64,000 nucleotides of DNA from a virus (IMGVR_UViG_3300019927_000017:1-64000), one strand, 5' to 3'. Positions 29,125-62,907 are shown, numbered from the stretch's first letter. Numbers and translations are program-made. Notes: generated by a model not told the origin, from the sequence alone.

Positions 29125-29391
29125 ATGGTTAACGCAACAGTCGATAACAGTCCGATTAGTATTCAACTCGGAGAAGACGAAACTACGACAGTTCCATCTG
29201 GAGAAGTCTGGAAAGTAACTGTGACACACTCTGGGGGCACTCCTCAACTTAAAATCAATGGAAATATAATTTTGAATGGTTCCACAAATAGCGCGGGGAC
29301 TCTTGAAATTGTAGTTACTGGTGGAGATACATTTAAGAAATACCAAGGTTATGATACCGATGTTCACATCAGCGGATTCGTGGTGGCATAA
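29125..29391 (+). CDS. small low-GC ORF after the tail fibre (possible fibre-associated or receptor-binding accessory)
   Basis: ORF track. Visibly AT-richer than its surroundings and less acidic. Confidence 0.5.
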   Translation: MVNATVDNSPISIQLGEDETTTVPSGEVWKVTVTHSGGTPQLKINGNIILNGSTNSAGTLEIVVTGGDTFKKYQGYDTDVHISGFVVA

Positions 29392-30592: not shown

Positions 30593-30847
30593 GTGGGTAA
30601 ACTTCGCTCTCTCGCTGGCATCTTCGACTTCTTCGTACCGGCTGAAGTGCTTAGTTCGGTACTACTGGTCTTCACGATGGAGAACATCCTCGACCATGCC
30701 TTCTCTGCCTACGTCCCGTCCGAGTTCGAAACAGCAGGATGGATAGCGGTCTACCTGCTCGGCGCGGCGGCCATCTCTGGCCTCAACTACGCGACGGCTG
30801 ACGACGAAGAACTGGAAGACCTCAGCGACGACTTGGACGACTGGTAG
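30593..30847 (+). CDS. two-TM membrane protein with acidic tail (holin-like candidate)
   Basis: Two hydrophobic helices. Last gene of the late operon. GTG start. Confidence 0.5.
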   Translation: MGKLRSLAGIFDFFVPAEVLSSVLLVFTMENILDHAFSAYVPSEFETAGWIAVYLLGAAAISGLNYATADDEELEDLSDDLDDW

Positions 30848-30898
30848 TCCACCTCACCGGGTGGGTTCGGGGCGGGGAGTTTGGCTTCACAGCAATGG

Positions 30899-31036
30899 TT
30901 ACTCGGTGAGTACGGATTCTGCTTCTTCTGCGATGCGACCGGCCTCGACCCTTGCGGTCGGCTGGCGAGCATCATCATCTTGGACACTCTTCATTTCGGA
31001 CTTCACGAAGGCCACTTGACGAGGACTCAACTCCAT
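30899..31036 (-). CDS. small protein (45 aa), candidate regulator
   Basis: MELSPRQVAFVKSEMKSVQDDDARQ... Its upstream region carries TTCAAGTG/CACTTGAA and ACTTCAAGTC palindromes. Confidence 0.4.
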   Translation of the reverse strand: MELSPRQVAFVKSEMKSVQDDDARQPTARVEAGRIAEEAESVLTE

Positions 31037-31039
31037 AGT

Positions 31040-31084
31040 TTCAAGTGGACTTCAGCACACTTGAAGGTACACTTCAAGTCTTAG
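31040..31084. promoter_or_regulatory. cluster of ACTTnAAGT-type inverted repeats
   Basis: TTCAAGTG (31040) pairs with CACTTGAA (31058), plus ACTTCAAGTC (31071). Confidence 0.45.
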
Positions 31085-31101
31085 GCTACAACGACAAAAA
31101 T

Positions 31102-31160
31102 CCCCCAGCAGGGACAGAGACTCAATGTCTCTATCCCCGCTGGGGGTCTTTTTTATTTTT
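31102..31160 (+). terminator. late-operon terminator: roughly 20-bp imperfect hairpin followed by a T-rich run
   Basis: CCCCCAGCAGGGACAGAGAC-tcaat-GTCTCTATCCCCGCTGGGGG, then TCTTTTTTATTTTTAT. Confidence 0.75.
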
Positions 31161-31173
31161 ATAACCGCTGTTA

Positions 31174-31228
31174 CAGCAGTACACCAACAGCGACCTTATC
31201 GCTGTTAACAAGAAGGTAAAACTATACT
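31174..31228 (+). repeat. leader repeat copy 2
   Basis: CAGCAGTACACCAACAGCGACCTTATCGCTGTTAACA...AAACTATACT. Confidence 0.8.
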
Positions 31229-31374
31229 GACGGCCATTACTGCTACCCCGGCTCCTATCCTGACTTCCATCGCCTAAGTCAGGTTTGGCACGCAACCACC
31301 CTGCTGATGGTCGCTTCCGTTGAGATGGGAACTACTGGTTAGAAGAGTAGAGTCGCGGCAGGTTAAGTCTTACG

Positions 31375-31593
31375 TTACTGGTGCGGGCCTCGGATGGCCC
31401 AGTCAGGTATCTGGCCTATCTTGTCCACGTAGAAGAGATAGACCCATGGCAGGACGAACAGGATGATTAGACACCACACGGCCAACAGCGATAAGCCCGC
31501 GAGGGTGTTGCCGAAGTAGGCGTAGACCGCGATTAGTATGCTGACGATGCTACCGACTCGGAACGCGAAGTCGTATGCTCTTCTGTCTTCCAT
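31375..31593 (-). CDS. two-TM membrane protein (72 aa)
   Basis: Hydrophobic helices IVSILIAVYAYF and LSLLAVWCLIILFVLPWVYLF. Confidence 0.6.
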   Translation of the reverse strand: MEDRRAYDFAFRVGSIVSILIAVYAYFGNTLAGLSLLAVWCLIILFVLPWVYLFYVDKIGQIPDWAIRGPHQ

Positions 31594-31655
31594 TTTGTAT
31601 TTGGTATCTAACTATAACAACGCTGTTCAAGTGGCTCCGTCTGATGGGGTACGGT

Positions 31656-31801
31656 GGGCAGTTAGCCAAACTGGTAAAGGCGGCCCGGATTAAACCGGGC
31701 TTTGCCGGGTCAGGGAGAGCCGATGATGGAGGACAATTAGAAGCCTCTTTCAGACAGTCCCCGTATGATTCGGCTTCCGGGTTCGAATCCCGGCCTGCTC
31801 G
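31656..31801 (+). tRNA. tRNA-like gene with a roughly 70-nt internal insertion (intron?); isotype unresolved
   Basis: 5' GGGCAGT-TA-GCCAAACTGGTAAAGGC (class II-like D arm). 3' CCGGG-TTCGAAT-CCCGG T arm plus CCTGCTC, which pairs 6/7 with the 5' end. I could not fold a canonical anticodon arm. Confidence 0.45.
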
Positions 31802-32116
31802 CTACTGAACAGTCACATCAACATCGAGGTCGGGGTCTGTCGTCGGGTCGATGCGCGGCTCCCCCGCCTTCTCGATGACGACTTCGAACGAATCACAGTC
31901 GTACATCTCTTTCTTCTCCCCTCGGACTACGAGGACTTCAGGCTGTTCTGCGTGTGACCGTATTGCTGTGTCGGCCATCGCTTCAACGTGTTCTGGCATC
32001 CCCGCCGGGATGTTTTGCCGAGCCGAGTCGAGAACAACTCCACCGCAGTCCTGACACTCTACGTAGAAGCGTTCTATCCTACCTGCGTTTTCGAGCAGTC
32101 GGCAAATCTCACCCAT
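31802..32116 (-). CDS. hypothetical protein with CxxC (104 aa)
   Basis: ORF track. Its stop abuts the 3' end of the tRNA-like gene. Confidence 0.6.
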   Translation of the reverse strand: MGEICRLLENAGRIERFYVECQDCGGVVLDSARQNIPAGMPEHVEAMADTAIRSHAEQPEVLVVRGEKKEMYDCDSFEVVIEKAGEPRIDPTTDPDLDVDVTVQ

Positions 32117-32576
32117 CTACGTCACCCACCGTGACAGTAGACTCGATGACTCTGAGCGGCATCGGCGGGTTGATGGTGACGGTCACGTCAACGATGCTGG
32201 CGGTGTGGGAGACTTTGATGTCGTAGTCCATCTCCCGAACGTCTTCCTTCGTGAACTGGTGGTCTTCGTGAGCGTGGTCGTTGACGATGGGGGTTGCTTC
32301 GGTGTAAAGGCAGTCACCCTCCCACGAGTGGTTCTCGGGGTCAACTGCTCGCTTGATTTTCTGTCGTTCGTACTCCGTGTTCGGAACCAGCTCGGTTCTG
32401 ACTTTCTGGTTGTATTCGTGGAGTTTCTGACAGCACTCACACGCCGATGGAGCGACCGTCTCGCCGCCGTGCATCTCGGGCTGGCAGTCGTCGTCAGTCG
32501 CGGCGGCTGTCCCCAACCCAGCGGCGGCGAGGACGCTGGAGATTGCGCTCGCAAGGAAGTCTCGTCTCTCCATCAC
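32109..32576 (-). CDS. Tat-signal secreted protein, Cys/His-rich
   Basis: N-terminus MMERRDFLASAISSVLAAAGLGTAAA is a twin-arginine signal. Overlaps the rtcB stop. Confidence 0.65.
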   Translation of the reverse strand: MMERRDFLASAISSVLAAAGLGTAAATDDDCQPEMHGGETVAPSACECCQKLHEYNQKVRTELVPNTEYERQKIKRAVDPENHSWEGDCLYTEATPIVNDHAHEDHQFTKEDVREMDYDIKVSHTASIVDVTVTINPPMPLRVIESTVTVGDVDG

Positions 32577-33958
32577 TCGGCTTTGAGGTTCAGCACAGGC
32601 TTGATTTGGTCAACGACCTCGGCGGTCGGGGTGATGGCGTCTTCGATAAGGTCGGCGGGCTTGTACGCCATCGGCGCTTCGTCCAGAGTTTCGCCGTTGA
32701 CTGAAGACGACTCCACGTCGGCCATCGTCTCCTTGAAGTCCTGCACGTCCAGTTCATCGAACGCTTGGGTTCGGGACATCACCCGGCCAGCACCGTGTGG
32801 AGCCGACTGGTTCCAGTCGTCGTTGCCTTTGCCACGAACCAGAAGCGTGCCGTCCCTCATGTTGAAGGGGACTACGGCGATTTCATCTTCGGCGGCGCGG
32901 GTCGCTCCCTTTCTGATGGTCATGTCTTCGAAGTCGATGAAGTTGTGGACGGCTTCGATGGGAGTCTTCGGGATGGCTCCGACGACCTCGGCGACCTTGG
33001 ACATCATGAGTTTCCGCGACTGAGAGGCGTACATCTGCGCGAAAATCATGTCCACATAATACTGGTGGGCTTCTTCGCCCTCCAGATAGGCGAGGTCATC
33101 ATCGAACTCCTGCACGGCGTTGCTTCGGGCCGTGCTGATGATGTCGAAGACCTGACCGATTTGCTTGCCTTCGAAGTCGGCGCGAATCTTCTCGGCATGA
33201 GGCTCCAACTTCGCGTTGGCGTACTCTTGGTAGCCCTCGGGAAGTCGGTCTTGGTCGAACATCTCGGCGCTTCGAAGGTCGGACGCCCGTTCCTGATGGT
33301 GCTGGGCTACGTTCAGTCCGAGGCCCCGACTCCCGCTGTGGATGACAGCCCACAGTCCGGTCTTATCGCTGTGGCCCAGTTCGATGAAGTGATTGCCGCC
33401 GCCGAGTGTCCCGATGGAGTTGATGGCCCGAGTCATGTCGTAGCCAACTCGGTCGCACAGGTCTTTCAGGTAGTCGAGGTCGTATCCTTTGCCGTGGACT
33501 GACGTGCTGTGAAGGACTCCGTACTCCCGTTCGAAGTCAACGAGTTTCTTGCTCGCTTCGTTCCACGGGAAGTCGTTGCCGATGTGGTACTCCTGCTCGG
33601 AGTGACCGTCGTCGCCGTAGACCTTGAACCCCATCGGAACCTTATCGCGGATTTCCTCGTCCCACAGTTGCAGGGTCTTCCGGTCGTAGTCCACGTTCCC
33701 GAAGTTCACCGCGTACATCCCACAGCCGATGTCCACGCCGATGGTGTTGGGGACGACTCGGTTTCCGAGAGGCATCGTGAAGCCGATGACTGCACCGGAG
33801 CCGACGTGCGTGTCGGGCATGATAGCCACGTCGTTCTCGAACGCTTCGTGGTCTATCATCGTCTGAATCTGGTCGATGACGCCATCTTCCAGTTCGTCTT
33901 CGGGAAGCATTACTTCTGCATCGGTACTTGCGCCGCTGATTGTAGTTGTGTCTGTCAT
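32573..33958 (-). CDS. rtcB: RNA 3'-phosphate/5'-OH ligase RtcB
   Basis: Motifs DTHVGSGAVIG, GGGNHFIE, HSGSRGLG, VHNFIDF and SAPHGAGR. Trimmed to the ATG at 33958. Confidence 0.92.
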   Translation of the reverse strand: MTDTTTISGASTDAEVMLPEDELEDGVIDQIQTMIDHEAFENDVAIMPDTHVGSGAVIGFTMPLGNRVVPNTIGVDIGCGMYAVNFGNVDYDRKTLQLWDEEIRDKVPMGFKVYGDDGHSEQEYHIGNDFPWNEASKKLVDFEREYGVLHSTSVHGKGYDLDYLKDLCDRVGYDMTRAINSIGTLGGGNHFIELGHSDKTGLWAVIHSGSRGLGLNVAQHHQERASDLRSAEMFDQDRLPEGYQEYANAKLEPHAEKIRADFEGKQIGQVFDIISTARSNAVQEFDDDLAYLEGEEAHQYYVDMIFAQMYASQSRKLMMSKVAEVVGAIPKTPIEAVHNFIDFEDMTIRKGATRAAEDEIAVVPFNMRDGTLLVRGKGNDDWNQSAPHGAGRVMSRTQAFDELDVQDFKETMADVESSSVNGETLDEAPMAYKPADLIEDAITPTAEVVDQIKPVLNLKAE

Positions 33959-33969
33959 GGTTGGGTTAG

Positions 33970-34254
33970 TTAGTTGTCGTCTTCTTCGAAGCCGTGTTCG
34001 TCGCAACGGTGCGCTTTGAAGGTCTGAGTGATGTGGTCAGGCCACGGTTCTCTCTCACCTTCCGGGTTCGCGTAGGTCGTGAAGCCTACCCGTGCGTAGT
34101 GGGTCGCATCAGCCCCGCAGTAGCAGTCGTGGTCGAGGTGGAACTTCTCGGGAAGGTTGGAGTCGTGTTCCTCGTAGGTGACGACGTTGACTACGTAGAA
34201 TCGGTCGCACTCTACGTAACTGCCCTCACCGTGGATGTGGTCAGTCACGGCCAC
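33970..34254 (-). CDS. hypothetical His/Cys-containing protein (94 aa)
   Basis: ORF track, GTG start. Confidence 0.55.
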   Translation of the reverse strand: MAVTDHIHGEGSYVECDRFYVVNVVTYEEHDSNLPEKFHLDHDCYCGADATHYARVGFTTYANPEGEREPWPDHITQTFKAHRCDEHGFEEDDN

Positions 34255-35125: not shown

Positions 35126-37843
35126 CTACATGAACGCCTCCAGCCCGCTCTGGCTCTGCGTCTTCCCGGCGAGAGCCGCCTGCGTCTCCACGCCGAAGGC
35201 GTCGAGGATGTCTTCCATCGGATTGGCGAGACACTTCCGTTGCATCTCGCTGGCGTCAATCTTCAGGTCGATGTCTTCGAGGTCGTAGGCATCTTCGTAG
35301 GCGATGACATCTACTCCTTCGCCCCTGACCGTCTGTCCGGGTTTCACCTTCGCTCGCTTCGGCTTGTCTCCCTTGGCGAACTCCACATCGAGAAGGTGGT
35401 TGGCGAACCACGCCGCCCGTGGCGCTTCACCTCGTGGATGGTCGCCGGTCGTAGACCACGAGTAGTTGTCGTCGCCGTCCGGGTTGTCAGGGTCTATCTT
35501 CTGGCCGAGGCCCTGTGGGATGCCGAGATTGTCCCAGTCGGGGTCAGCCGGGTCGATGGAAGACGCGGCGTCGTGGACTGTCTTCACCACGGCGTCCTTA
35601 TCGGCTCCACGAACGATTTGTTCCAGAACCTCTTCCTGCGTCTCCTTCGTCAGCATCGAGAAGTTCGACTTCACGCAGGGATAGCCTGTCACGTCGAACT
35701 TGCCCTTGCCGTCCTTGACTTTCTCGTCAAGGTCGTCGCCCTCGTCCCACATCTTGAGGTAGGCGTAGTTCTTCTTCGAACCGGACATGAAGAACCGCTT
35801 GGCCCGCATCTCCACCTCAATCTCCCAGCGGTTGTGTTCTCTCGGGATGTTGAACTCGTCGCACAGCACCGGGTAGACCTGCGACTCCAGTTCAGCACAC
35901 AGTTTTTCAGCGTAAGCCAGCGTGTACTCCTGACTCCAATTTGTCGGGAACTCGACATAGTTGCTGTCGGTGTCCCCGTAGACCACTTCAGCCCCCTCTG
36001 CCGCGTTCTGGCTGATGTACTCGGACGTGGCCTTGATGACGCGCTGGCCGGTGAGGGTGATAGCCGCCGCGTCCTTCGGATTGTAGAGCGGTGAACGCGC
36101 CCATCCCGAGTATCCGTAGAACGAGTTGTAGATGGTCTTCGTGACGTTGTACGCTTCAGCGTACTCGTCCCACAGGTCGGTTCCGTACTCGGCGGAGTTC
36201 CGTTGCGCCTTGAACTCCGCTTTCACCTCGTGGTACTCGTCCACAAGTTCTCGGATGATACCGTCGTGGTCGGTACGGAACATCTGGCCGTTGGCGGCCT
36301 CGACGTACTGGCCGTCAATCTCGTCTTTCAGTTCGTACCACTCGACCGTCCCCTTCTCAACCTCAATCCGGGTGTCCGGTGAGGCGTTGAGCATCCATTG
36401 GGTCATGGGGTAGAGGGACGCAAGGTCAACCCCGCAGACGTTGTACTTCACGCCGGAGAACGCTTCCTCGACGTGAGCGCCTTCGTAGTTCACCTCGTCG
36501 TTGTTGTTCGAGTTGGCGACCGCCGGGTTGTCCCACGCCGTTATCATGGCGAGGTCGTGTTCAGCACACTTCCGCCGGACGGACATCTCGATGTACTCGT
36601 TGTTCTGGTGGGTACGCCGCCAGTCCACACCCACCATGTCTTTCAGCCGCTTCTTGAAGCCGAGAACATTCTCTGCCTCATTGACACCCACGGTCAACCG
36701 GGTGTCTTTTACGTTGTAGTTCACGAACTTCACCGGGTCGTCCCGGTACATCTCGAAGTAGCCCTGCTCCTGATGCTCTATCTTCGTCTCGTCCAGAGCG
36801 TCGGCGGCTACGTCGTCCAGTTTGAACGAGCGCGGCTCGGTGAACTTCGTGTCACCCCAGCCGTCCATCAGGTCGTAGAGCGCACGGCCTGTGATGCTCG
36901 GCTTGAAGTCGTCGCCTCGGTCGTCCACCTCTACCTCTCGCTCTCGGGAGAGGCGCTGTGGTGACGCTCCGACCGACTTCATCCGCTCGATGATGTGCGG
37001 GAGGTCGAAGCCGTCTTTCTTCGAGTCGCCGGAGTTCCACCCAACGATGATGTCGGGGTTCTTGTCCTGAATCCACGACCCGAAGGCAATGAGCATCCGC
37101 CGTTCGGATGGCTCGAAGTTGAGGCTGTCCGGCTCGGTCAAGCCGATGTCTGACAGCGATAAGTCGCCATCGGCCATCTTCGCCCGCTCCACCGCCGAGA
37201 GGTCGAAGAAGTCTTCGAACGACTCGCCGTCCACGTCGAGGAAGACTTCGTACTCTTCGTCGTAGGAGTCGTGGACGGCGATGGAGAGGATGCGGGCCTC
37301 TCCGGGGTCGGGGAAGCCAGCGCCCCGGTCGTCCGTCTCGATGTCCAGCGTGACAACTCTCGGCTCCACGTCGGTCATCTTCACCGGCTCCAGTTCATCG
37401 TGGTCAACGATGATGTGTTCACCGCGCCGGGTGTCCGTGGGAACTCGAACTCCCGTTCGGATGTCTTCGTCAATCCGAAGCCGCTCGGTGAAGAGACAGT
37501 CTGCGCCCCACGTCTTCTCGAACTCGTCGCGGAGATTCCGAATCGAGTGTGGGTACTCCGTGACGACCTTCACGAGGTCGGTGGGGTTGGCATCGAACCG
37601 CTCCGACAGCGGGTCGATGTCTACCTCTTGGTACTCGATAAGGTCTTCGTAGTCAGCCTCGGCGACCTTATCGGCGTCAGTACGTCGGGTGAGGAAGTAC
37701 GGCGGGAAGCCTCGAACGCTGACCGTCCGGGGTTCATGTTCCGCCGTTCTGCCGTACAGCCGGACGATGACTGAATCGAAGTCAGTATCGCCGGGGTACA
37801 GCGTCTCCGTCGTGGTGATGTAGAGTTCTTCGTGTTCAGTCAT
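35126..37843 (-). CDS. polB: family B DNA polymerase
   Basis: Exo I VVTLDIETDD, motif A DLASLYPM, motif B KTIYNSFYGY, motif C YGDTDS. Confidence 0.97.
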   Translation of the reverse strand: MTEHEELYITTTETLYPGDTDFDSVIVRLYGRTAEHEPRTVSVRGFPPYFLTRRTDADKVAEADYEDLIEYQEVDIDPLSERFDANPTDLVKVVTEYPHSIRNLRDEFEKTWGADCLFTERLRIDEDIRTGVRVPTDTRRGEHIIVDHDELEPVKMTDVEPRVVTLDIETDDRGAGFPDPGEARILSIAVHDSYDEEYEVFLDVDGESFEDFFDLSAVERAKMADGDLSLSDIGLTEPDSLNFEPSERRMLIAFGSWIQDKNPDIIVGWNSGDSKKDGFDLPHIIERMKSVGASPQRLSREREVEVDDRGDDFKPSITGRALYDLMDGWGDTKFTEPRSFKLDDVAADALDETKIEHQEQGYFEMYRDDPVKFVNYNVKDTRLTVGVNEAENVLGFKKRLKDMVGVDWRRTHQNNEYIEMSVRRKCAEHDLAMITAWDNPAVANSNNNDEVNYEGAHVEEAFSGVKYNVCGVDLASLYPMTQWMLNASPDTRIEVEKGTVEWYELKDEIDGQYVEAANGQMFRTDHDGIIRELVDEYHEVKAEFKAQRNSAEYGTDLWDEYAEAYNVTKTIYNSFYGYSGWARSPLYNPKDAAAITLTGQRVIKATSEYISQNAAEGAEVVYGDTDSNYVEFPTNWSQEYTLAYAEKLCAELESQVYPVLCDEFNIPREHNRWEIEVEMRAKRFFMSGSKKNYAYLKMWDEGDDLDEKVKDGKGKFDVTGYPCVKSNFSMLTKETQEEVLEQIVRGADKDAVVKTVHDAASSIDPADPDWDNLGIPQGLGQKIDPDNPDGDDNYSWSTTGDHPRGEAPRAAWFANHLLDVEFAKGDKPKRAKVKPGQTVRGEGVDVIAYEDAYDLEDIDLKIDASEMQRKCLANPMEDILDAFGVETQAALAGKTQSQSGLEAFM

Positions 37844-37992: not shown

Positions 37993-38243
37993 CAGTCGCG
38001 CTCGTGGCGACGGGTGTAGCCCGACTTCTTCGCCTTGTTCTTCAGTTTCTCTTCCTGCTGGGCGATTTCCTCCATGTACCGGCTGATGGGGAGGCTCAGG
38101 TCTATCCTGTCCTGCACCTGCCGACTGTGCATCAGCACCGGCATCCGAGCGGCCTGTGCTGAAACCGTCCGAGCGTCGTCGCCGCTGAAGGTGAACGTAC
38201 CATGCTCCGTCTCGACCGTCGCTTCGTAGTCGTGTTCTGTCAT
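37992..38243 (-). CDS. hypothetical protein (83 aa)
   Basis: ORF track. Confidence 0.55.
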   Translation of the reverse strand: MTEHDYEATVETEHGTFTFSGDDARTVSAQAARMPVLMHSRQVQDRIDLSLPISRYMEEIAQQEEKLKNKAKKSGYTRRHERD

Positions 38244-38728
38244 CGTGCGTGGGTCGCTCCTTCCTGCTGTTGGTAACTGCCGTCGTAGCCCGACGACGGG
38301 CTGTCCAGTTCGAAGAAGACGAGTTGAGCGATGCGCTCACCTTCTCGAAGGTCAACCGGCTGGTCGCCGAGGTTCATCAGTTCGAGCGTGATTTCGCCCT
38401 CGAAGCCGGGGTCAATCCAGCCCGCTGTCTTGTGAACGATGACCCCCTGCCGACCGATGGAAGAGCGCCCCGCCAGTTGCGCGGCGATGTGGTTCGGCAG
38501 GTCGATGGTTTCCTTCGTGTGGCCGAGGTAACGCTCGCCCGGCTGGAGTCGATGTTGGGGCGACTTCACCGAGTGGTCGCCCTCGAAGCGGTACACCTCA
38601 CGACCGAGCCGAACGTCCAGCGATGCTGGCTGTATCTGCTCGTCGGTCGGTTCGGGGTCAACGGTGATTGTCTCGCTGAGGTGAGGGTATCGAAGGTGTT
38701 CTTCGATTGTCCCGTCTGACAGAATCAT
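38240..38728 (-). CDS. dcd: dCTP deaminase (dUTPase superfamily)
   Basis: MILSDGTI N-terminus, QPASLDVRLG, AGWIDPGFEGEITLELMN. ATG at 38728 coupled to the upstream stop (TGATG). Confidence 0.9.
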   Translation of the reverse strand: MILSDGTIEEHLRYPHLSETITVDPEPTDEQIQPASLDVRLGREVYRFEGDHSVKSPQHRLQPGERYLGHTKETIDLPNHIAAQLAGRSSIGRQGVIVHKTAGWIDPGFEGEITLELMNLGDQPVDLREGERIAQLVFFELDSPSSGYDGSYQQQEGATHAR

Positions 38729-38874
38729 CAGCGACACCTCCCCGAGTTGATGTCGGTGTAGATTCCAGCGTCTTCGGGAACGTCTTCGATGCTGACGCGA
38801 CTGAGTTCGTTACCCTGTGCGTCACGGAAGACCATCTCGAAGCCTTCGTCGGTGGCGATGTAGTCAGCCCCCAT
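38728..38874 (-). CDS. small ORF (48 aa)
   Basis: MGADYIATDEGFEMVFRDAQ... TGATG coupling at both ends. Confidence 0.4.
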   Translation of the reverse strand: MGADYIATDEGFEMVFRDAQGNELSRVSIEDVPEDAGIYTDINSGRCR

Positions 38875-52256: not shown

Positions 52257-52324
52257 TGGAAGCGTGTGGAATTGAACCACCATCAGCGGCTCTCCGGCCT
52301 ACTGTTCTCCAGATTATCGCTTCC
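52257..52324 (-). tRNA. degenerate tRNA-like element / pseudo-tRNA (68 nt)
   Basis: Perfect 7-bp acceptor stem GGAAGCG/CGCTTCC and a T arm with TTCAATT loop. No foldable anticodon arm. Confidence 0.3.
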
Positions 52325-52561: not shown

Positions 52562-52635
52562 AGCAGGAACGTGGACTCGAACCACGGACTTGCTACTTAC
52601 GAAGTAGCCACTCTTCCGAACTGAGTTATTCCTGC
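52562..52635 (-). tRNA. tRNA-Thr (anticodon CGU)
   Basis: Clean cloverleaf: GCAGGAA acceptor, ACTC/GAGT D stem, GCTAC-TTCGTAA-GTAGC anticodon arm, CGTGG-TTCGAGT-CCACG T arm. Confidence 0.85.
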
Positions 52636-61912: not shown

Positions 61913-62350
61913 CCGTTGTTGCTTCAGGTACTCCTTCTCCATCGACTTGTACTGGTTCCACGGAACGGTCTTCACATCACCGTTGTTGCGGAACGCTACG
62001 GACATCTCGATGATTCTGCCTCGACTGTCTTCTTCAGAACAGTCTCGACAGGGAGCCACTTCGTTCTGTGTGAAGATGATAAGGCCGACGAAGGAGCCGG
62101 GAAGGGCGGCCTTGTGGACTCCACGCTCGATGGGATAACCCGTCTCCTTTTTCACGAACGTCGTTTCGAACTCACCGGGAACGTGGTCCCGGTAATCGTG
62201 TCCGTTCTCTTCACAGACATCGTACTCTTCGTCGTCCCCCTCGGCGACCTTATCGCTGTCACCATCACGGTTGCCACAACTCAGTCCAGCGAAGACGACT
62301 GCCGCCCCGAGGAGCAGGGTAGCGACCAGACCGAAGACGACCTCACTCAT
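61910..62350 (-). CDS. exported/membrane-anchored protein (N-terminal hydrophobic segment then Cys)
   Basis: MSEVVFGLVATLLLGAAVVFAGLSCG... Contains DSDKVA encoded by the 16-mer. Confidence 0.6.
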   Translation of the reverse strand: MSEVVFGLVATLLLGAAVVFAGLSCGNRDGDSDKVAEGDDEEYDVCEENGHDYRDHVPGEFETTFVKKETGYPIERGVHKAALPGSFVGLIIFTQNEVAPCRDCSEEDSRGRIIEMSVAFRNNGDVKTVPWNQYKSMEKEYLKQQR

Positions 62351-62907
62351 TGGCCCATCACCGCCAGCGCCTCTTCCTCTTCGACTCCCTCACTTCCTTC
62401 CATCAGCCGCTCTTCCTGATGGCTCCCTTCGTAGTCGTCAGCACTCTCCGCCTCGATGAAGGACATCTGAGCGATTGCCATGTCGGTCGGGATGGTGACT
62501 CGTTCGACCGAGGTTGGAACCTTCAGCAGTCCCTCGCCGATGCCTTCGTAGCCTTGGTCCCACAGCGCCGAGGTGAGGTGAAGGCCACACCGCATCAGCC
62601 GGGAACGGGGGTAGACCCGACCGACGTAACCGTCGGGAATTTCGACTTTCTCCCCGTAGACTACCGGGTAGACCCCCGGAACGATGGAGTAGACTTCGAC
62701 TCCCTCTTCGTGAATCGAGTCTACGGGCTGTATCGGCGTCCGGTTCGGCTTCTCGTAGTCGTCTTCGAAGAAGTGAGCCTGACCGGAAGTTCGGTACATC
62801 TCTTGGATGGTCAGGTCAACCCCGTTGGGTTGGATGTGTTCGTCGGGAACGTCGCCGTCGTTGAGGTGCTGTGCCACGAAGTCGCCGGTTGCGATTGCTG
62901 GTGTCAT
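62347..62907 (-). CDS. dUTPase / dCTP-deaminase-like protein (second copy of the superfamily)
   Basis: IQPNGVDLTI, YPRSRLMRCGLHLTSALWDQGYEGIGEGLL. Confidence 0.7.
   Translation of the reverse strand: MTPAIATGDFVAQHLNDGDVPDEHIQPNGVDLTIQEMYRTSGQAHFFEDDYEKPNRTPIQPVDSIHEEGVEVYSIVPGVYPVVYGEKVEIPDGYVGRVYPRSRLMRCGLHLTSALWDQGYEGIGEGLLKVPTSVERVTIPTDMAIAQMSFIEAESADDYEGSHQEERLMEGSEGVEEEEALAVMGQ

Follow-up and report, generated by a model that had tools for sequence, protein, structure and literature searches.

What does a virus do with an RNA ligase of the RtcB family and an over-long tRNA-like gene side by side? The question is raised by a 64,000-nt stretch of viral DNA (IMGVR_UViG_3300019927_000017:1-64000, hereafter the window), in which the stop codon of an RtcB gene lies 770 nt from the 3' end of a tRNA-like gene interrupted by an insertion. 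RNA-repair functions that can be recognised in archaeal viruses are few, and a virus-encoded RtcB is among them; an RNA conserved beside it in two lineages is a concrete candidate for what the ligase acts on or with. A first-pass annotation of the window had suggested that the two genes form a self-contained tRNA splicing module. The best reading overall, to which we give about an even chance of being right, is instead a stand-alone RNA-repair ligase accompanied by an unspliced tRNA mimic. The two genes are as follows.

32573-33958, minus strand: RtcB RNA ligase gene, 461 aa from the ATG at 33958; PF01139, phrog_1075
31656-31803, plus strand: gene for a tRNA-shaped RNA (cloverleaf plus long arm), interrupted by a 72-nt insertion and convergent with the RtcB operon

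The RtcB gene and its product

The family of the ligase, which had been named from its motifs, was confirmed by profile searches against Pfam (PF01139, E = 1.4e-62, 212.8 bits at a curated cutoff of 27) and PHROG (phrog_1075, 'tRNA splicing ligase', E = 1.9e-127). Besides the ATG at 33958, translation could start at a TTG at 34006 (477 aa; open reading frame (ORF) 32573-34006) or at an ATG at 33910 (445 aa, the call of the Joint Genome Institute (JGI)). The translation contains TLGGGNHFIELG, VIHSGSRGLGLN and SAPHGAGRVM, including the motifs GGGNHFIE, HSGSRGLG and APHGAGR. Residues D49, H51, D76, C79, N189, H190, F191, E193, H207, H338, N339, H388 and K459 were invariant across 23 homologues, and all metal- and GTP-binding residues are kept, i.e., the Asp and Cys of DIGCG, NHFxE, the His of HSGSRG and the HN motif. 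These motifs line up with those of solved structures, among them T. thermophilus and human RtcB chains; at the position of the guanylylated histidine, H388 (SAPHGAGR) was aligned with sCHGAGR of 2epg and human RTCB. The gene is complete, as the first-pass annotation had stated, and its active-site residues are intact rather than substituted. On sequence grounds the protein is predicted to be active as a 3'-phosphate/5'-hydroxyl ligase.

The same annotation had introduced RtcB as the archaeal tRNA-splicing ligase. Similarity to the canonical archaeal enzyme was only distant (P. horikoshii chain, 27 bits, E = 1.6e-5), and the NCBIfam matches, all below their cutoffs, were to bacterial-type and intein-containing RtcB models (such as PRK09588 and release_rtcB). 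By these comparisons the protein is of phage/bacterial type and not an orthologue-like version of the canonical archaeal splicing enzyme. The host is expected to supply its own canonical archaeal RtcB.

The RtcB part of the finding is real yet ordinary: the protein belongs to a common phage family, phrog_1075, and haloarchaeal tailed viruses with both RtcB and tRNAs have been described before. The RNA part is for now a curiosity known from two sequences. At least 597 stretches in IMG/VR encode the family, and 12 of the 80 best RtcB loci have tRNA genes within 3 kb. Homologues with 45-50% identity are annotated in HGTV-1, HCTV-1, HCTV-5, HCTV-16 and HRTV-22, HF2 likewise encodes RtcB (PMC7230728), and for the combination of RtcB and tRNAs in such viruses a role in tRNA repair has been proposed (Liu et al.). 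The gene studied here resembles these in protein family (PHROG 1075), in the kind of virus, and in being an accessory gene near replication genes with viral tRNAs alongside.

Structure of the tRNA-like gene

The tRNA-like gene was missed by ARAGORN at default settings, and the Rfam tRNA model (RF00005) gave no match over 30800-32200, either at the gathering threshold or at E <= 10. It is made up of the following parts.

31684-31699, plus strand: anticodon-arm equivalent, 5-bp stem CCCGG/CCGGG (6 bp in the window copy) and 6-nt loop AUUAAA
31704-31774, plus strand: 71-nt extra arm with a basal helix of 7-9 bp, internal loops and a distal hairpin
31705-31710, plus strand: direct repeat CCGGGT, first copy, at the 5' edge of the insertion
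31777-31782, plus strand: direct repeat CCGGGT, second copy, at the start of the T arm
31777-31793, plus strand: T arm CCGGG-TTCGAAT-CCCGG, its first 6 nt being the second CCGGGT copy

The body of the RNA has an acceptor stem of 6-7 bp, U8, a 3-bp D stem, an A-rich D loop with G18G19 and A21, and discriminator G73. The earlier description of a tRNA-like gene split by about 70 nt, some 770 nt from RtcB, proved accurate: an insertion of ~72 nt sits between the variable loop and the T stem, outside the anticodon loop. Removing one repeat together with the intervening sequence (RNA positions 56-127, counted along the tRNA-like gene) leaves a 74-nt class-I tRNA body, and once the insert was deleted in silico ARAGORN called a tRNA at default stringency. 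In the minimum-energy fold (-63.6 kcal/mol, z = -2.6) the RNA forms a cloverleaf with the 71-nt arm between the anticodon and T arms. The nucleotides of the tertiary interactions are kept, namely U8, A14, G18G19, A21, the R15-Y48 pair and the T loop UUCGA. A covariance model (R1) of the two known copies of the gene matched ordinary phage tRNAs with E <= 1e-5, down to 5e-6; because these matches span the full length, the tRNA-like body is confirmed. Its sequence suggests that the gene began as a class-I tRNA gene into which 72 nt were inserted where variable loop and T stem meet, with a CCGGGT duplication on either side.

Second copy and selection on the RNA

The second copy lies at 3954-4102 of contig L022 (L022 and L023 are one virus in two samples), with 89.6% identity over 144 nt. 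The RtcB genes of the window and L022 are 79% identical in protein and 75% in DNA, and only 58% at synonymous third positions. Since the RNA evolves far more slowly than synonymous sites, it is a selected gene and not debris. The interior of the insert is even ~96% identical, with 2 changes in 57 nt. The consensus fold of both copies agrees with a cloverleaf plus long arm, and substitutions in stems keep or improve pairing: G-C and G.U are exchanged at 2:71, 3:70 and 30:40, U.C in the window becomes U-A in L022 at 7:66, and G53A and U114C in L022 convert G.U pairs of the basal arm to A-U and G-C. Judging from the modelled folds, the mature RNA probably retains the insert in the form of a long extra arm. 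Upstream, a divergent gene accompanies both copies.

31375-31593, minus strand: gene of a 72-aa membrane protein, running divergently from the tRNA-like gene; product 46% identical to that of L022 4188-4427

The alignment of the intergenic region indicated that this divergent arrangement is kept in L022. Exact-pattern scans of IMG/VR and GTDB genomes yielded no third copy, and blastn of the tRNA-like gene against the phage collection gave no match.

The gene could also be a dead tRNA gene with a small insertion, close to RtcB by coincidence, in which case only RtcB would matter. The CCGGGT repeat flanking the insert looks like a target-site duplication, the anticodon loop departs from the norm, U7 and C66 are mismatched in the window copy, default ARAGORN and Rfam fail to detect the gene and most relatives are without it; moreover, haloviruses commonly carry tRNA-like sequences that are partial or aberrant (PMC7230728). 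However, the excess of identity in the RNA, and most of all in its insert, over the synonymous sites of RtcB speaks for strong purifying selection, the tertiary nucleotides are intact, changes in stems preserve pairing, and the position next to the divergent neighbour is retained though the flanking protein has diverged to 46% identity. We give a dead gene little probability.

A small reading frame, AUG AUG GAG GAC AAU UAG (MMEDN*), lies inside the extra arm at 31722-31739 on the plus strand. It is the same in L022, with no obvious preceding signal, and is probably coincidental.

Intron or retained arm

Several observations weigh against an unspliced mimic. Since CCGG is palindromic, one repeat copy can pair with the other, and in the window a strict 3-4-3 bulge-helix-bulge can be drawn (H1 46-49/129-132, H2 50-53/122-125, H3 57-59/119-121) with the bulges GUC and GUU. 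Cutting this motif would excise 72 nt at 54/55 and leave a 74-nt body with a 5-nt variable loop and an exact T arm. L022 also has a strict motif of its own, at a different place (53-56/117-120), which would remove 64 nt, i.e., most of the arm. In HGTV-1, an over-long tRNA near RtcB is annotated as intron-bearing. RtcB and the RNA are adjacent in both RNA-bearing lineages (770 nt apart in the window, and in L022/L023 with the tRNA-like gene directly abutting the RtcB stop codon, again convergent), which hints at a functional link. In the arm, the pair C56-G112 is broken in L022, and with only two diverged copies available no pair of the RNA, extra arm included, displays double compensatory covariation. 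Finally, a role as mimic or decoy is a conjecture of low certainty.

The first of these observations underlie an elaborated form of the explanation put forward in the first-pass annotation, in which the host endonuclease would cut the CCGG-CCGG bulge-helix-bulge at 54/55 and the viral RtcB would join the exons into a working tRNA. Such an intron would have company, as archaeal introns at 53/54, 56/57 and 59/60 and with lengths of 11-129 nt are known, and cleavage after the second bulge nucleotide is consistent with their description (PMC4090602). The insertion resembles these non-canonical introns, which are cut by EndA and sealed by RtcB, in its length of 72 nt, in its T-arm position and in the 3-4-3 motif of the window copy. 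They are, however, typical of Crenarchaeota and Nanoarchaeota (PMC4090602).

The motif differs from that of known introns in being unconserved, energetically disfavoured and statistically not unusual, and its product would be non-standard. What forms the strict motif of L022 is only a 3-4-2 at the same place in the window, so the motif is not conserved between the copies. In L022, G53A breaks the window-type H2 and would leave A opposite C in the T stem after splicing, yet it improves the extra-arm helix; the spliced product of L022 would have either a mismatched T stem or a variable region of 14 nt. Forcing the RNA into a splice-competent fold cost about 20 kcal/mol in both copies (-43.1 vs. 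-63.6 kcal/mol in the window and -45.8 vs. -64.3 kcal/mol in L022, against the respective minimum fold). Among controls with shuffled arms, 30% had a motif at least as good and 7% also left a tRNA recognisable by ARAGORN. The spliced product of the window has standard length and T arm, but it would retain G73 and an anticodon loop of 6 nt, unlike a normal tRNA-Leu, and was labelled 'tRNA-?(ta)' by ARAGORN. Furthermore, eight closely related contigs have RtcB without the RNA, and the host is expected to have an RtcB of its own. To our knowledge, non-canonical tRNA introns are essentially crenarchaeal and nanoarchaeal, and the splicing endonucleases of haloarchaea are of the strict homodimeric type. 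The proposed splicing module thus finds no backing in a conserved motif, in folding energy or in the shuffled controls, and we consider an intron at this site unlikely.

At the canonical site 37/38 of the tRNA-like gene no bulge-helix-bulge motif can form. An intron there, as called by relaxed ARAGORN (tRNA-Leu(taa)), was rejected: it would measure 65 nt in the window vs. 54 nt in L022, with poor anticodon stems and no motif complementary to WUUA.

The HGTV-1 gene mentioned above is a 132-nt 'tRNA Asp (gtc) + Intron' in GenBank (70440-70571; 2529-2660 of contig L232), 1.15 kb downstream of RtcB. Like the window gene it is over-long, with intact acceptor and T arms and an internal insertion of ~60-70 nt, near RtcB and in a haloarchaeal myovirus. 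It differs in having no sequence similarity (model R1 gave no match on L232) and in being co-oriented with RtcB, whereas the window gene is convergent. No strict bulge-helix-bulge giving a valid tRNA was found in it, and this gene, too, may encode an aberrant tRNA-like RNA. At the level of annotation there is thus a precedent for RtcB with an over-long tRNA-like gene; no analysis of the pairing was found in the accessible literature. The 132-nt 'tRNA-Thr' of HRTV-22 was rejected as a further precedent, as it is the partial-tRNA phage attachment site (attP) of HF1-group viruses.

Decoding and other candidate roles of the RNA

An unspliced RNA could in principle still decode, either as tRNA-Leu(UAA) or as an ochre-suppressing or frameshifting tRNA with a loop of 6 or 8 nt, its arm being tolerated as in class-II tRNAs. 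The class-II-like D stem of 3 bp, the arm at the variable position, the UAA/UUA in the loop (preceded by U in L022) and the intact elbow nucleotides would fit. The anticodon arm does not: its loop (UUUAAA in L022) has 6 nt in both copies (WUUAAA, on a stem CCYGG/CCGGG), or 8 nt with the closing G-C pair open, but never 7, and ARAGORN gave it the non-standard labels '(ta)' or '(ttaa)'. The discriminator is G73, while that of tRNA-Leu is A73. There would also be little demand for decoding, because UUA and UUG are very rare in the virus; with 21 and 54 occurrences among ~17,700 window codons (1.2 and 3.0 per 1000), no other Leu codons are as rare. An ochre suppressor would come at a high cost, since TAA ends 31 of the 96 predicted genes. 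We know of no precedent for a variable arm of 71 nt. Given the 6-nt loop the RNA is probably non-decoding, and a decoding tRNA appears very unlikely.

A tRNA-shaped non-coding RNA next to RtcB in two viral lineages, with a long conserved arm as a possible site for protein binding, also calls to mind the bacterial rsr-yrlA-rtcBA operon, whose tRNA-mimicking RNA works with Ro and RtcB. The window locus could be such a Y-RNA-like repair module. Against this, no TROVE/Ro protein was detected among the 44 ORFs scanned, Rfam gave no match to Y RNA or YrlA even at E <= 10, the ends of the RNA form an acceptor stem and not a Ro-binding stem, and RtcB usually occurs without the RNA. What the locus shares with YrlA is a non-coding RNA that mimics tRNA and is encoded next to RtcB; the tRNA-like domains differ in topology, and we deem a module of this type extremely unlikely.

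Further candidates were rejected. A C/D-box or K-turn RNA in the insert would have a box-C-like AUGAUGG, but L022 has UCAC in place of the presumed box D, UGAU, and a K-turn is incompatible with the geometry of the strands. The sequence does not match the core motifs of a hammerhead or other small ribozyme, and Rfam gave no match at E <= 10. An attP or partial tRNA is at odds with the completeness of the element, its distance of 24 kb from the integrase and its 10% divergence between the viruses. A protein-coding function is contradicted by a 1-nt indel between the copies, and the overlapping 77-aa ORF is basic, in contrast to the acidic proteins of the genome. A search of the rest of the window for a repeat of the insert, or for a target with which it could pair in antisense, gave nothing beyond a 15/16-nt match (52280-52295, E = 0.19).

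Conserved but aberrant tRNA-like sequences, such as the partial tRNA-Thr attP and a 'tRNA-Pro', occur together with a hammerhead ribozyme in HF1-group haloviruses (PMC7230728). The window element shares with them that it is a conserved non-standard element of a haloarchaeal myovirus; it differs in being complete, with a structured insertion, and its distance from the integrase makes a use as attP unlikely.

Probable RNA repair and possible tRNA mimicry

The role of the ligase most likely is RNA repair, judging from its family, the literature and the repair genes of its relatives. RtcB would reseal tRNAs or other RNAs that are cut during infection by host ribonucleases leaving 2',3'-cyclic-phosphate and 5'-OH ends. 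This role is plausible because close relatives pair RtcB with Rnl-type ligases, and one of them with a kinase and a phosphatase. Among the closest relatives (RtcB 64-79% identical) the neighbours of RtcB vary. In three lineages an RNA ligase of the Rnl type (PF09414) directly follows RtcB, on contigs L021 (4900-5919), L145 (4142-6085, bearing an intein with a LAGLIDADG endonuclease) and L230 (1158-2174). In L024, whose RtcB is 64% identical, a DSPc dual-specificity phosphatase and an AAA_18/AAA_33 P-loop kinase, which could be RNA end-healing enzymes, lie upstream of the family-B DNA polymerase (PolB) gene (1-1300). These changing neighbours fit an RNA-repair toolkit put together in differing combinations.

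The first-pass annotation had also suggested that the virus could counter a tRNA-cleaving host defence, by analogy with T4, where Pnkp and Rnl1 repair PrrC-cut tRNA-Lys. Common to both would be a viral sealing enzyme directed against a defence that cuts tRNA, and relatives of the window virus do have Rnl-type ligases, a kinase and a phosphatase. In contrast to the T4 enzymes, however, RtcB joins 3'-phosphate or cyclic-phosphate ends directly to 5'-OH ends, without end healing; no polynucleotide kinase or Rnl match was found in the window (44 ORFs).

Is the RNA then part of the repair function? The earlier pairing of RtcB with the tRNA-like gene stands for the window and for L022/L023, where the two are adjacent, but is not general. 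The tRNA-like gene is absent from contigs L001, L021, L024, L145-L148, L229 and L230, and RtcB is therefore independent of the RNA, as most close relatives have the one without the other. As an unspliced tRNA mimic, the RNA would be a decoy or a binding partner for tRNA-directed enzymes. In a bolder version, the 148-nt RNA would be a new virus-encoded tRNA mimic whose arm recruits or occupies a tRNA-directed enzyme (a host anticodon nuclease or RtcB) and which works with RtcB as the archaeal-virus counterpart of YrlA and RtcB; less radically, it would be the first tRNA of a haloarchaeal virus with a bulge-helix-bulge intron in the T loop, at 54/55. A novelty of this sort is decidedly unlikely in our estimate. 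Were the RNA spliced, non-canonical tRNA introns would extend to haloarchaeal viruses; were it an unspliced mimic, it would be a new RNA player in the archaeal virus-host conflict over tRNA integrity.

Gene neighbourhood

Between RtcB and the tRNA-like gene lie two ORFs of the RtcB transcription unit.

32109-32576, minus strand: 155-aa ORF with a twin-arginine (Tat) signal; its translation starts MMERRDFLASAISSVLAAAGLGTAAA, and it overlaps the RtcB stop codon by 4 nt
31802-32116, minus strand: 104-aa acidic ORF closing the RtcB transcription unit, with its stop codon up against the 3' end of the tRNA-like gene

Translation appears coupled from RtcB through the 155-aa ORF to the 104-aa ORF, and neither of the two ORFs matched a family in Pfam, NCBIfam or PHROG. 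The co-oriented Tat-signal gene downstream of RtcB had been noticed in the first-pass annotation, and the twin-arginine signal is indeed present; in L022 this ORF is absent between RtcB and the tRNA-like gene. With the Tat-signal ORF and the extra-arm tRNA-like gene, the flanks of RtcB differ from those in the isolates named above. No partner proteins were found: a Pfam scan of 44 window ORFs gave no match to archease, TROVE/Ro, polynucleotide kinase, splicing endonuclease or Rnl-type ligase. For archease, whose absence had also been remarked on before, a small or divergent protein could escape such a scan.

Next to the 72-aa membrane-protein gene, the segment 31086-31370 contains a near-perfect hairpin of 21 bp (CCCCCAGCAGGGACAGAGAC...GTCTCTATCCCCGCTGGGGG) followed by a T-run. 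The adjoining non-coding block is ~78% conserved in L001, L021 and L022, and the hairpin may be a bidirectional terminator or a small RNA.

The virus and its other features

The window encodes a large terminase, portal, major capsid protein, tail sheath and tape measure, which identifies a tailed virus. Its closest DNA relatives are haloarchaeal tailed viruses, with ~70% identity, in PolB only, to HSTV-2, HRTV-7 and HCTV-6 and nothing nearer; by this comparison it is a new viral lineage relative to the isolates. The proteins are acidic and the overall GC content is 58%. A 71.8-kb JGI contig, from which the window presumably comes, encodes an identical RtcB protein. Further features are listed below.

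35126-37843, minus strand: PolB
38240-38737 and 62347-62907, both minus strand: dCTP-deaminase/dUTPase-like genes, two in one genome
51361-51438, minus strand: canonical tRNA-Gln(TTG), ARAGORN; Rfam tRNA 53.8 bits
51428-51955, minus strand: ORF of the PF11645 PD-(D/E)XK endonuclease family, phrog_5018, overlapping into tRNA-Gln
52562-52635, minus strand: canonical tRNA-Thr(CGT), ARAGORN; Rfam tRNA 60.2 bits
55781-56938, plus strand: tyrosine integrase, Pfam Phage_integrase E = 5e-15

The two canonical tRNAs are those that the first-pass annotation had placed at 51-52.6 kb. The integrase suggests, from its sequence, a temperate lifestyle; tRNA-Thr(CGT) and tRNA-Gln lie 3-4 kb from it. About 600 nt between tRNA-Thr and the PF11645 ORF are non-coding, and a weak tRNA-like remnant was seen at 52258-52324 (tRNA-Sec model, 22 bits, E = 0.18). 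The PF11645 family includes the intron homing endonuclease I-Ssp6803I. In HSTV-2, tRNA-Gln directly follows the homologue of the upstream stretch, and for this reason an endonuclease cassette may have been inserted before tRNA-Gln in the window. Just past a tail-fibre-like gene, an 88-aa ORF (29125-29391, plus strand) has a GC content at third codon positions of 0.33, compared with ~0.7 genome-wide, and may have been recently acquired.

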